Virus record (IMG/VR): IMGVR_UViG_2537561937_000008
From: a virus
Lineage: Duplodnaviria; Heunggongvirae; Uroviricota; Caudoviricetes
Reading direction: 5' to 3' (one strand)
Length of the DNA stretch: 8,757 nt
This document shows, in pieces, positions 1,522 through 8,757 of this stretch; position 1 is the stretch's first letter; each line of letters starts with the position of its first letter. A program made the position numbers and the translations under genes. A model generated the notes under the pieces. That model worked only from the letters and a program-made list of their open reading frames with translations, ran no database searches and had not been told where the DNA came from.

Positions 1522-2052
1522 TTAATCGCCTGGATAAATGGTAATAACTTCACCGTCATAAGTTGCCGCCGCTGCGAAAATATCCCCCGGAATTTCCTGA
1601 ATGATATTCAGCCCTGTCATGTGGCGGCTGACCGGGCGGGCATCAGCAATCAACCGCTCCATTTCCAGATACATTTCCTCCGTCACGCCACTGTCCAGCG
1701 TGCCGACTTCAACGGTAAATGTTCCCGGTTCTCCGCCGAACTCCCACCACTCAGACACGCGAATGAGGTATCCCAGCGGCTCAATGGCCCGGCGCAGTGC
1801 GCTGATGGTCCCTTTGTGTCGGTGTATCAGCCATGCATCACGAATAACCTGTCGCTTTGTCTCTTCCGGCCAGTTGCGATCCCAGCGGTCAACGGAAAAC
1901 GCCCAGGCGAGATAAGGCAGCAGATGCACCGGGCAGGTGTCCGGCGACCACAGCGTGTTGAGGTCTACCGGAATGTCTGTAATGCGTGTTCCGACGGCTT
2001 CGGCACAACGCATGAAATTGCTGGCTGATGGTGGTAACAACGAATTACTCAT
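1522..2052 (-). CDS. I: Baseplate assembly protein (P2 gpI-like), 176 aa
   Basis: Track ORF 1522..2085 trimmed to the internal ATG at 2052..2050 (MSNSLLPP...), giving 176 aa, the length I recall for P2 gpI. Conserved stretch ...LWSPDTCPVHLLPYLAWAFSVDRWDRNW...HKGTISALRR... Overlaps the gpJ stop by 8 nt. Confidence 0.85.
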   Translation of the reverse strand: MSNSLLPPSASNFMRCAEAVGTRITDIPVDLNTLWSPDTCPVHLLPYLAWAFSVDRWDRNWPEETKRQVIRDAWLIHRHKGTISALRRAIEPLGYLIRVSEWWEFGGEPGTFTVEVGTLDSGVTEEMYLEMERLIADARPVSRHMTGLNIIQEIPGDIFAAAATYDGEVITIYPGD

Positions 2053-2941
2053 TGCGTCCACCTTCGCTGATGGTGAACGACTCACAGCGCGCCGCCTGTA
2101 TGTCGCTGATGGCCATATTCTGTGTGGGTTCGATTATCTCCACGCGTTGCACACCGTGCACATGCAGTGCGGCAGCAATGGCGGACAACGCCACGTCCTG
2201 ACCGATAAGCCCCTGCTCAGCCAGCCACTTCCTGAACGACGATTCCGCCGCAGCCAGAATAGGTTCGGATTCCGGGCCGGGGTAAAAGTACAGTTTTGCA
2301 TTCAGCCGCCATGTCACGATTCTGGCACTCTGTACGGTCAGGCGGTCGGCCACAGGGCGGGTATCCTCTGCATTCAGAACGGCGCGAACGGTATTAAGCA
2401 ACGCCTCCGTTGCTGTGCCGTCGCCTTCAGTGGACAGGATGGAAACCGTCACATTTGCCGGAGACGGACTGATAGCCCGCGCATCACGCACCAGACCGCT
2501 GGCGCTGCGGGCAAAATACTCGTATGCACCTGACGGGCCAGCAACACTCAGGCCGTCGTACGCCCGTTGCGCCCGCAGTCTCAGCGAGGTGTCGCTTTCC
2601 ATCACCGCGTCGGTGGTATCCGTTGCCGGAGTGATAACCAGGCGCTTTGTGTTCATATTGCCTGCGAGGTTGTCCAGGTCTGTCCCTGAGCTGTGGCTTA
2701 ACATGCAGGCGCGTGCACCCTCATTGACCCGCTGGCGTAACAGCATTTCACGAAACGACATGGTTTGAGCGATAACGTTAAGGGGTTCCGATTCCAGCTC
2801 CAGCGCGGCGGAAACGGCTTCACGCTGTTCGGCGGGATAGGACGCAATCATCATGGCTTTTGTGTCAGCCAGAATTGCTTCAAAGTCAGGCTCCGCGATG
2901 ATGGCGGGTTCCGGTAACTGGGAAAGGTCAACGGCGGGCAT
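2045..2941 (-). CDS. J: Baseplate assembly protein (P2 gpJ-like), 298 aa
   Basis: ATG at 2941..2939 preceded by GGGAG. N-terminus MPAVDLSQLPEP... and overall length match P2 gpJ (about 302 aa). Confidence 0.88.
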   Translation of the reverse strand: MPAVDLSQLPEPAIIAEPDFEAILADTKAMMIASYPAEQREAVSAALELESEPLNVIAQTMSFREMLLRQRVNEGARACMLSHSSGTDLDNLAGNMNTKRLVITPATDTTDAVMESDTSLRLRAQRAYDGLSVAGPSGAYEYFARSASGLVRDARAISPSPANVTVSILSTEGDGTATEALLNTVRAVLNAEDTRPVADRLTVQSARIVTWRLNAKLYFYPGPESEPILAAAESSFRKWLAEQGLIGQDVALSAIAAALHVHGVQRVEIIEPTQNMAISDIQAARCESFTISEGGRNE

Positions 2942-2944
2942 GAT

Positions 2945-3295
2945 TTACTCCCTCAGCGTGATGGTTAACTCAACATTCTGCATGGTCTGCATGACAGTGC
3001 CCGACAGTGTCACCCCGGCGTGGCCTCCCGCTTTCCAGACAACGTCGATGGCATCCAGGGCAATGCGGGGTTCCCATCGTGTCAGCGCAATCACGGCAGC
3101 ACTCATGCATTGCAGACGCGTGGTGTTATTCATGGGTTCGTCAATCAAATCAGGCACAAGGCTGCCATATTCCCGTCGCATAACCCGGCTTGCCAGCGGG
3201 GTGGTCAGGATGTCCTTGACTGACTGTTTCAGGTGCTCCATATCGTTCAGGTTTCCCGTCCCGTCCGGGTTCATTCCTGTGTAGCGGGTTGTCAC
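2945..3295 (-). CDS. W: Baseplate wedge protein (P2 gpW-like, gp25-like family), 116 aa
   Basis: N-terminus MTTRYTGMN... resembles P2 gpW and the length fits (115 aa). Start appears to be GTG at 3295..3293 overlapping the gpV TGA (GTGA junction); an ATG at 3274 is the alternative. Confidence 0.8.
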   Translation of the reverse strand: MTTRYTGMNPDGTGNLNDMEHLKQSVKDILTTPLASRVMRREYGSLVPDLIDEPMNNTTRLQCMSAAVIALTRWEPRIALDAIDVVWKAGGHAGVTLSGTVMQTMQNVELTITLRE

Positions 3296-3873
3296 TGCGG
3301 GCCTCCTGTCGAATCGCTGCCACCTTTAACGCCACCGTGTTTATGCGTATGCACTGTGATGCCGTTTGAGGTGAAATCGCCGCCGCTGTGCGTGATATTG
3401 CCGCTCATCTTTCCCCCTTTTGTGACGTCAATCTCGGCTGTTCTCAGAAGGTTTGTGCATTCCACGACGGGCGTGTCCAGTGTCACGCTGACGGATGCCT
3501 GTAAAGTGGCCGTTTTCATGCCGCTGGCGCTCAGTGCGCCTGCGTCCGCGTCGTAGCGGAACACCGCGCCATCCGGCGCGCTGACCACGATTTCTTTCAG
3601 GCTTTTGCCGGGTGCCGGAATGGCATCACTCCACAGGCTGCCAATTATCATGGCGGTTTCCGGGTTGCCGCCAATGCAGGCAATTGCCACCTGTTCGCCT
3701 GGTGATGGCGGCAGCCACACATTGAAGGCTCCCGCGCGCGTGGTGTTCCAGCGCAACCAGCCTGTTTCCAGTTCGCCGCTGCGAACGCGCACGCACCAGG
3801 ATTCCTCATCAACTTCAGAGATGATCCCGGTGCGGATGATGTTGCTCAGCAGTCGCATGAGTTCTGCGCTCAC
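3292..3873 (-). CDS. V: Baseplate hub/spike protein (P2 gpV-like), 193 aa
   Basis: Motifs ...IRTGII...GEQV...C-terminal ...GNITHSGG...SNGITVHTHKHGG... match P2 gpV as recalled. GTG at 3873..3871 overlaps the S stop TGA; ATG at 3858 is the alternative start. Confidence 0.85.
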   Translation of the reverse strand: MSAELMRLLSNIIRTGIISEVDEESWCVRVRSGELETGWLRWNTTRAGAFNVWLPPSPGEQVAIACIGGNPETAMIIGSLWSDAIPAPGKSLKEIVVSAPDGAVFRYDADAGALSASGMKTATLQASVSVTLDTPVVECTNLLRTAEIDVTKGGKMSGNITHSGGDFTSNGITVHTHKHGGVKGGSDSTGGPQ

Positions 3874-5510: not shown

Positions 5511-5899
5511 GCCGGATAGGCTCCGTGTGGTAACTGAAAATGCGGTCCGTCTTTCAGAGTCTTCCAGTCGCCGCCCCATTCCACCGGAATATTCAGTTCC
5601 CGGCTGGCCTGTCTGAATGCTGCTGCGATTTTTTCGTACAGCGGCCATTCCCATGACACCTGGCTGCCGATATAAGCCACAACATCCACGGCATGTCCCG
5701 TAAGGTGGCGGCTGTTCATGGTCTGGCTCTTACCCGTGGCCACAAGTTGCTTCTGGCGGTAACGACTGCGCAACCCTTCGGTGATACCAAAATCCACTTC
5801 CGAAATTTCCAGTGCCCGTCGGGTCACTTTCACCAGATCAGGATTTACGCCCTGCAAATTCTTTTCGCTCCGGCTGCTGAATTTAAATGTGTTGCTCAT
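5507..5899 (-). CDS. Endolysin, peptidase M15 family (T5-type L-alanyl-D-glutamate endopeptidase-like), 130 aa
   Basis: ATG at 5899..5897 overlaps the holin stop (ATGA). Zn-ligand pattern SRHLTGHAVD ... DGPHFQL and N-terminal SEKNLQGVNPDL resemble the T5 endolysin as recalled. No signal peptide. This is not a P2 gpK-type lysozyme. Confidence 0.82.
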   Translation of the reverse strand: MSNTFKFSSRSEKNLQGVNPDLVKVTRRALEISEVDFGITEGLRSRYRQKQLVATGKSQTMNSRHLTGHAVDVVAYIGSQVSWEWPLYEKIAAAFRQASRELNIPVEWGGDWKTLKDGPHFQLPHGAYPA

Positions 5900-6219
5900 T
5901 CGTCCTTCTCCTTCACCCTGCGATTAAAGGCTGCAATAACCTTGTCGCGTGCTTTCTCTGCGCCCATAAAACCGATTGATGCGCCGATAAACGTCACGGC
6001 ATCTTCAGGAAAACCGAAGAAGCGCAACGACCCGGCCACGGCCATGGCAAGAACGCCGCACGCCAGCGATCCCGTTACGGTCTGAACCAGTGTTCGTCCG
6101 TCATAAAGACTCATCAGCGCGGAAATGCTGACCGCCGCGCCTACTGCATACACCGTTGGCAGGTGGTCAAAGAGCCACGCAATAACCTGCTCTGTGATCC
6201 CTGTTTGAATGGTGCTCAC
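5896..6219 (-). CDS. Putative holin, 3 predicted TM segments, 107 aa
   Basis: In-frame GTG at 6219..6217 with SD GGGGGGAG upstream, 2 nt after the gpX stop. Three hydrophobic segments and a charged C-terminus (EKARDKVIAAFNRRVKEKDE). Sits directly upstream of and coupled to the endolysin. The first 73 codons of track ORF 5896..6438 overlap gpX out of frame and are rejected. Confidence 0.65.
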   Translation of the reverse strand: MSTIQTGITEQVIAWLFDHLPTVYAVGAAVSISALMSLYDGRTLVQTVTGSLACGVLAMAVAGSLRFFGFPEDAVTFIGASIGFMGAEKARDKVIAAFNRRVKEKDE

Positions 6220-6221
6220 TG

Positions 6222-6422
6222 CTACTCCCCCCACAACTGAATCATTTCTCGTTTCTTCTTCTCCGGCTCCGGCATCTCCACTTCCTGCCCGGCGTCCAGA
6301 AATACCTGCTGACAGAGTCCGGGGTTGGCATCCAGCACCTTTTCGGTGACGCCCTGCGTCGTGCCGTAGTACCGGAAACAGAGCGAATCCACGGTGTCGC
6401 CTTCCAGTGCCTTCACTTTCAT
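6222..6422 (-). CDS. X: Tail protein X (P2 gpX-like, LysM-like), 66 aa
   Basis: Internal ATG of track ORF 6222..6455 gives MKVKALEGDTVDSLCFRYYGTTQGVTEKVLDANPGL..., matching P2 gpX (67 aa) in length and motif. Its ATG overlaps the gpL stop by 1 nt (TGATG). Confidence 0.85.
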   Translation of the reverse strand: MKVKALEGDTVDSLCFRYYGTTQGVTEKVLDANPGLCQQVFLDAGQEVEMPEPEKKKREMIQLWGE

Positions 6423-6916
6423 CAGCACAACTCCGCAAAGATTCGCGGGCGGCACAGAATGTCAGAGATGGCCCAGCTCACATCGCGCCACAAATCCGAT
6501 GTCTGTATATCCAGTGCGTCCGCCCGGCGGTCGCCCTTGTCCGTTGTGTCTGCATCACGATAACGCTCCAGAATCAGGGCGCGCGTGGCGGTATAAACAG
6601 CATTGCGCCAGTGCCAGAGATTGACGCTTTCTCCGTTAATTACGGGTGCCGGAACATCGGCCAGCGTCTGATGGCCAGCTGCCTGCTGTTCCTGCTGCCA
6701 CGCTTCCAGCTCGCGGGTAACGTGTGCCACGGCCCCGGTGGCGGTATGCAGCAGGCGGGAGGTGGTCACACGTCCCGGCAGTCGTACCGCCAGACGCAGT
6801 TCACGCAGCACAATATCCGGCCAGAATGCACCCGCTGAAATACGGGTATCGCCATCATCGGTATCGGTGATGTCGTCCTCTGCGGGTCTGGGTTCAGTTC
6901 TGGCAACCATACTCAT
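6422..6916 (-). CDS. L: Head completion / stabilization protein (P2 gpL-like), about 164 aa
   Basis: Track ORF 6422..6925 starts with GTG; ATG at 6916 has CAGGAG 8 nt upstream. Conserved ...LADVPAP..GESVNLWHWRNAVY...ERYRDADTTDKGDRRADALD...LWRD... as in gpL (P2 169 aa). Confidence 0.85.
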   Translation of the reverse strand: MSMVARTEPRPAEDDITDTDDGDTRISAGAFWPDIVLRELRLAVRLPGRVTTSRLLHTATGAVAHVTRELEAWQQEQQAAGHQTLADVPAPVINGESVNLWHWRNAVYTATRALILERYRDADTTDKGDRRADALDIQTSDLWRDVSWAISDILCRPRIFAELC

Positions 6917-7819: not shown

Positions 7820-7836
7820 TTGTTCTCTCCGTTACT

Positions 7837-7855
7837 GGCGGGCATGATGCCCGCC
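7837..7855. repeat. Perfect 9+9 bp palindrome GGCGGGCAT-G-ATGCCCGCC in the N-M intergenic region
   Basis: Seen directly between the N stop (7865) and the M ribosome-binding site. No U-run follows on the minus strand, so it is not a canonical terminator. Confidence 0.5.
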
Positions 7856-7864
7856 GTGAGTTGA

Positions 7865-8757
7865 TTAGCTGTCGGCGAACTTCAGGCCAGTGACCATCGC
7901 GCACTTGCCATAGTCTTCAACGACATAAGCGTCATTGATGGACTGGTAGGTGGCGATGCGGTTGTATTCCGGCTCGTCTTTCATCAGGCGACGCATTGAA
8001 CCTTTCTGCCAGTAAATCGACAGGTTGTTGAACGAGGTGATCAGCATCGTTGCATCCGGGAAGAACGGCGCAAGGAATACATCCAGCCCGCCAATGGTGC
8101 GCGATGACAGGATGAGCTGTCCGGCGAGTAATTCCGCATTGGGATTCTGGCCGCTGATGCTGTTCAGCACGGGCAGCGAGCGAGTTAAACAGGTTGCGCC
8201 CCATAATCACCACGAGGTCGTCAGCTTCCTTGTGCCATTCATCCAGCAGGGATGACGGCGTCCTGTACCAGTGCATCAGCGTTCGCATACTTACCCGCGT
8301 GCGCCACGGTGTTGTCCATGTTGCGGGAGGTCAGCGTCACGTCATTCATAACGCGTTCGCTGGCGTCGGTTCTGATGTGCTCCAGCCAGCCCACGTTAAC
8401 GTCCTGAAGCAGCTTGTTGGTGCTGAAGTTGGACTCATCCGCGTGAGACGTGCCGTTGAAACCGATCATGATGCGGTCAAGCGCCACCTGTCGGGCAATC
8501 TGTGCGCTGATGCGGGACTGAAAATCAGGGTGTGCCGACCAGGCATCAAGCTGCGGATACGAAATAAACGTGTCGTAGTTCACCTGTTCGCACTGGTATT
8601 TGCGGTTTTTCAGATCAACCACGTTATTCGGGTTACGGCGTTTTGTGCCGTCATAACTGGTATTCGTGCGCGCAATTGGCCCGGTGGTATCCAGGAGGAT
8701 TTTTTCGCCTTTCTGGTCGGTCACGCCGATCACGTTAATTCTTTTTGTAAATTCGGT
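7865..8757 (-). pseudogene. N: Major capsid protein (P2 gpN-like), N-terminus beyond the right edge, reading frame broken by two frameshifts
   Basis: Three consecutive minus-strand ORFs in three different frames (8239..8733 and on to the edge, 7932..8288, 7865..8170) each match successive parts of gpN: ...GVTDQKGEK...IMIGFNGT...VGWLE... / ...DEWHKEADDLVVIMGRNL... / ...LITSFNNLSIYW...YVVEDY.... Frame switches are at about 8248-8253 and about 8174-8186. Confidence 0.6.

Follow-up and report, generated by a model that had tools for sequence, protein, structure and literature searches.

Frame breaks in the major capsid gene of a P2-like E. coli prophage contig as a probable consensus artifact of two collapsed prophages

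The closest described relatives of the sequence studied here are the P88-like (Gemsvirus-Xuanwuvirus) prophages of E. coli, with which it shares the late-gene order N...H. The analyzed stretch, hereafter the window (8,757 nt), is the entire contig AQEF01000006.1 from GCA_000356125.1, the 2013 draft of ETEC E. coli 199900.1. Its genes all lie on the minus strand: reading from 8757 down, the major capsid gene N is followed by M (small terminase), L (head completion), X (tail protein), the holin, M15 endolysin and LysB/LysC genes, and then by R, S, V, W, J, I and the start of the tail-fiber gene H. The N gene is 98-99% identical at the nucleotide level to intact genes of phages 500465-2, 503458 and P88 and of many E. 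coli prophages, annotated as “phage major capsid protein, P2 family”. Unlike the intact P88-like gpN genes, however, it lacks four bases, and is annotated solely as a 101-aa C-terminal fragment. We propose, with a probability of roughly 0.93, that its frame breaks are a consensus artifact of draft assembly, in which two co-resident prophages would have been collapsed into a single contig, and that they do not mark a pseudogene.

Capsid gene N and the late region

The window contains codons 53-350 and the stop codon of gene N (7865..8757, minus strand), as read from a three-frame translation; the 5′ end of the gene is truncated by the contig end at 8757, which leaves codons 1-52 off the contig. 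By sequence, it belongs to the P2 gpN family (PF05125), which is matched both by the 101-aa product and by the intact 350-aa neighbors. Its place in the operon is the expected one as well, flanked by O (scaffold) and M (small terminase): M is located directly 3′ of N, at 7819-7019, and O is found 5′ of N in all homologous loci, its position in the window falling past the contig end. The gpM protein is very common, with 9,406 blocks in a protein look-up.

The first-pass annotation, made from the letters of the window, had described N as split over three reading frames by two breaks, and both the three-frame translation and the alignment to homologs bear this out: as deposited, the gene lacks a continuous ORF spanning about 350 codons. 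In the minus-strand translation, frame A encodes gpN residues 53-219, then reads ...ALVQDAVIPAG and is closed by a TGA at 8239..8241, which does not fall in the reading frame of intact N; frame B encodes ...SSLLDEWHKEADDLVVIMGRNLFNSL; and frame C encodes (V)LNSISGQ..., ending at the natural stop at 7867-7865. The annotated 101-aa ORF (7865..8170, minus strand) begins with a GTG codon corresponding to Val251 of intact gpN, and an exact protein look-up identifies it as GenBank EMZ90008.1, “phage major capsid, P2 family protein”.

An inverted repeat rich in G+C (CGGCGGGCATCATGCCCGCC) occupies 7835-7860 on the minus strand, after the capsid stop and before gene M; it resembles a terminator or attenuator hairpin, and is kept in homologs. 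A 180-aa TTG-start ORF (5896-6438, minus strand), mechanically listed over the X/holin region, is probably not a gene, since relatives annotate only a 107-aa holin there. Within the tail-fiber gene H, a 132-bp tandem repeat at 651-992 (2.6 copies, 85% match) probably reflects repeated fiber-shaft modules.

Four missing bases at positions discordant between two natural alleles

Alignment with intact N from phage 500465-2 and from E. coli O121 RM8352 shows the window gene to be 4 nt short, the deficit being divided between two places, and the intact homologs allowed us to locate the exact missing bases at both of them. Site 1 (8255..8258, minus strand) reads GACGC·CG·TCA, with gaps at 8258/8257, where a purine is missing (R; G in type A and A in type B, the two natural alleles defined below), and at 8256/8255, where a pyrimidine is missing (Y; T in A and C in B); these losses correspond to the third positions of Ala219 and Arg220. 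Site 2 (8176..8179, minus strand) reads CT·CG·CTG, with gaps at 8179/8178 (G missing relative to type A, or A relative to type B) and at 8177/8176 (T or C, respectively), corresponding to the third positions of Leu246 and Arg247. The close spacing of the two sites had been recognized in the first-pass annotation; its placement of the first break at 8248-8253 gives way to the gaps listed here, and its interval of about 8174-8186 for the second needs a small correction.

Most parsimoniously, the aligned sequences represent four separate single-base omissions, GAC GC[G] CG[T] TCA and CT[G] CG[T] CTG. The lost bases are single and non-adjacent, and all four fall at synonymous third codon positions. 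Each site carries a net change of -2, and therefore the three frames differ pairwise and the indels do not compensate each other, as had been claimed. Repair with the four bases of either allele, all of them synonymous, yields one open frame covering residues 53-350, and the repaired gpN differs from natural alleles by 1-2 amino acids. Among complete genomes, AH20J067 is the closest (99.0% identity throughout the window), and comparison with it reveals no further indel across the 8,757 nt. No intact homolog examined is broken at these junctions: the reading frame runs through both in about 1,058 complete E. coli genomes, in 16 phage-record matches of full length and in about 50 IMG/VR loci, an observation which the first-pass annotation itself had named as speaking against a real defect.

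Site 2 had also been thought to lie in a slippage-prone context, a twofold repeat of TCGC. This repeat is absent from intact alleles, which read CTCGCTGCGTCTG or CTCGCTACGCCTG there, and therefore it provides no pre-existing slippage context; it is created by the omissions, and the change consists of two single-base losses with no loss of a repeat unit, so that slippage at TCGC was rejected. A motif-specific error at GCGT was likewise rejected, as the other GCGT/TGCGTC sites in gene N are intact, and so was a templated quasi-palindrome mutation, for which no template explaining both sites could be seen by eye.

We sought the natural alleles that differ at the missing positions. A first SNP-drop test against 15, and then 52, common alleles accounted for site 1, both GCG/GCA and CGT/CGC being frequent variants there. 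At site 2 it failed for the G of CTG, invariant in the 67 alleles. The second allele was reached via the W protein of the window, a rare allele present on 63 contigs: three contigs encoding this same protein, L100, L104 (an independent Logan assembly) and L105, contain intact 350-aa capsid genes. Type A, found in AH20J067 and most others, reads GAC GCG CGT TCA at site 1 and CTG CGT CTG at site 2, while type B, found in L100, L104 and L105, reads GAC GCA CGC TCA and CTA CGC CTG. At both sites, the window equals the bases shared by A and B minus exactly the four discordant positions. The type-B capsid allele is absent from complete E. coli genomes, in which its best match is 98.3%, and hence no finished genome with A and B side by side could be shown.

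Mosaic structure of the window and its recurrence in sister drafts

With L003 as the reference for haplotype A and L100/L104/L105 for haplotype B, the 7.15-kb comparable part of the contig (1609..8757) is a fine-grained mosaic in which two natural prophage haplotypes alternate. A and B are discordant in 210 of 7,153 columns (2.9%); the window agrees with A at 121 of these and with B at 85, switching from one to the other 28 times, and at most of the discordant positions other than the four a base has been emitted and not omitted. Outside the two sites, position 2717 is the sole one in the 7.15 kb compared that is neither A nor B. The capsid gene itself contains a type-B patch (8078..8120, minus strand), defined by A8120, A8082, T8081 and A8078 and resulting in G279D, which lies within a stretch of the gene that is otherwise of type A.

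Both baseplate proteins V (193 aa; 3292-3873, minus strand) and J (298 aa; 2045-2941, minus strand) are singletons among about 15 billion proteins, and at every variable position of either protein the state is known from natural alleles. Judging from this allelic composition, V and J are probably chimeric products of a mixed consensus and not natural variants, and singleton status is what would be expected of such products.

The deletions were found in none of the approximately 1,058 complete E. coli genomes with gene N, and in the best complete-genome match to a 141-nt query, its 141 bases are aligned to 145. In a collection of about 15 billion proteins, the exact 101-aa fragment comes from a single contig. 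An exact scan with both shortened strings yielded one other IMG/VR contig, the 17.9-kb L097 (IMGVR_UViG_2534682093_000007, from IMG genome 2534682093), and no occurrence of the shortened site strings in 185,579 GTDB representative genomes. L097 is identical to the window at both sites and 98.35% identical to it over 7.15 kb, although its A/B mosaic is different. Its capsid gene is in at least four pieces, with fragments identical to proteins deposited in GenBank for E. coli 178200 and P0304777.7,.5 and.11, and the alignment of its positions 3026-13164 to a complete genome has 26 gap openings in 10 kb. The additional deletions include CCG[C/A]AG, GA[A/G]CGC, GG[G/A][C/T]GT[G/A]TT and GGG[G/A]CTT. 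A triple cluster at 8082, 8081 and 8078 is dropped in L097 and is represented by type-B bases in the window, showing that two assemblies of one clone resolve the same columns differently.

These patterns can be described by a drop model, which allows three outcomes per discordant column (A, B or omission) and is scored in 100-column blocks. It fits 70 of 71 blocks for the window and 70 of 71 for L097, and accommodates all L097 deletions in the 7.15 kb tested. When applied to five natural control sequences, 19-44 blocks failed; the option of dropping rescues only 0-1 block in such controls, and the model is therefore not trivially permissive. By our own arithmetic, the chance of four independent deletions all falling on discordant columns is of the order of 1e-6.

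Haplotypes A and B diverge sharply from gene I on (1609-2000), where I encodes 176 aa in one and 202 aa in the other, and the fiber genes are different. From gene I onward the window follows A and L097 follows B, which suggests that the assembler split two prophages only where they differed strongly. In a contig with a neighboring WGS prefix, L102 (AQEN01000027.1), a 1-nt deletion at about 930 leaves an M15 endolysin of 96 aa versus 130; its position is not A/B-discordant in the reference pair.

The strain 199900_1 is listed as AQEF00000000, ST423 and CS17 (Sahl et al. 2017, Table S1, PMC5469772), and the three strains 199900_1, 178200 and P0304777_2 are Bangladeshi ETEC of type ST423/CS17, for which 100-bp HiSeq reads and Celera Assembler were used (PMC5469772). 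The authors of that study re-assembled the genomes with SPAdes, Celera Assembler being said to remove contigs with anomalous coverage (PMC5469772). Three elements of a collapsed-repeat consensus artifact are found together in this material: the assembler used derives its consensus from multi-aligned reads, the natural haplotypes A and B differ exactly at the four missing positions, and the contig combines their states in a chimeric fashion, with next to no variation of its own.

Origin of the frame breaks

From the allelic states in the window, we infer that types A and B are co-resident in 199900.1. The strain would carry two P2-like prophages (P88/Xuanwuvirus-Gemsvirus-type) with late regions about 97% identical, the type A copy resembling the AH20J067 prophage and the type B copy resembling L100/L104/L105. 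An overlap-layout-consensus assembler would have pooled the 100-bp reads of SRR446718 from both copies into one contig, and at most discordant columns the consensus would have taken one allele, giving rise to a chimeric mosaic. At the two closely spaced SNP pairs [G/A]CG[T/C] in codons 219-220 and 246-247, no base would have been emitted, at a cost of four bases, probably because each allele had been given a column of its own opposite gaps and the gap had won in every such column. The real capsid genes of the strain are most probably intact, and the short contig ending inside phage genes fits a repeat-induced break. Of the two outcomes between which the first-pass annotation had left the choice, a truly defective prophage is disfavored, and an assembly or sequencing error is strongly favored.

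It is improbable that the frameshifts are real, with the capsid of an ST423 ETEC prophage inactivated by small deletions and the element rendered defective while its lysis and tail genes stayed intact. Prophage pseudogenes are common, and both sites are present in contigs of at least three ST423 assemblies, as inheritance would give; since the three affected assemblies represent one clone, recurrence alone could also reflect an inherited real mutation. However, four separate 1-nt deletions would be needed, each of them at an allele-discordant position, which is very unlikely to happen by chance, and this in 8.7 kb without any other indel. The lesion-bearing assemblies share not only the clone but also a single center and a single assembler, and complete genomes, as described above, are free of the deletions. 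Furthermore, L097 drops discordant positions which are kept in the window, and its mosaic differs, which fits assembly noise and not shared descent. The chances are smaller still that the deletions are real and arose through in vivo recombination between prophages, by an unknown process that would excise mismatched heteroduplex bases at allele-discordant positions.

Equally slight is the probability of read-level sequencing errors having been carried into the consensus of a single prophage. Draft assemblies do contain such errors, and for one of the four missing bases an alignment to a TT dinucleotide is possible, but deletions are rare in Illumina reads, and three of the four positions are outside homopolymers. 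Errors made at random would neither fall on A/B-discordant columns nor recur identically in another assembly, and the motif TGCGTC is intact elsewhere in gene N. Finally, programmed recoding, in which two ribosomal frameshifts would join the three frames into a complete capsid protein, can be dismissed, as it has in its favor only the continuity of homology across frames, while all homologs are single-frame with four extra bases, which contradicts recoding, no slippery heptamer or stimulatory structure was found by inspection, and the repeat at site 2 is missing from intact alleles.

As products of two prophages collapsed into one consensus, the frame breaks would almost certainly be ordinary, and not a biological feature. 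AQEF01000006.1 should not serve to call the prophage defective, EMZ90008.1 would be a fragment created by assembly, and the V and J proteins of this contig should not be taken as natural variants. Further errors of this kind are present in other drafts of the batch, namely E. coli 178200 and P0304777.x. The signature, in which single bases are missing where two natural alleles differ, within a fine allele mosaic, may serve as a simple read-free flag for false pseudogenes in old consensus-based drafts.

Comparison with known systems places the window closest to the collapsed-repeat consensus errors of Celera Assembler with short reads, in which near-identical copies are merged, the consensus is a mosaic, and discordant bases are lost; the contig is also short and ends within repeated phage genes. 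It differs from them in that the dropping, rather than miscalling, of mismatch columns is known here via the A/B comparison alone. Genuine prophage decay usually proceeds by one-off events spread along the element, among them homopolymer slips, IS insertions and larger deletions. With genuine capsid pseudogenes the window has in common an interrupted structural gene in a late operon that otherwise looks complete; in contrast to them, it exhibits four point omissions confined to allele-discordant wobble positions, in an element with no other lesion.
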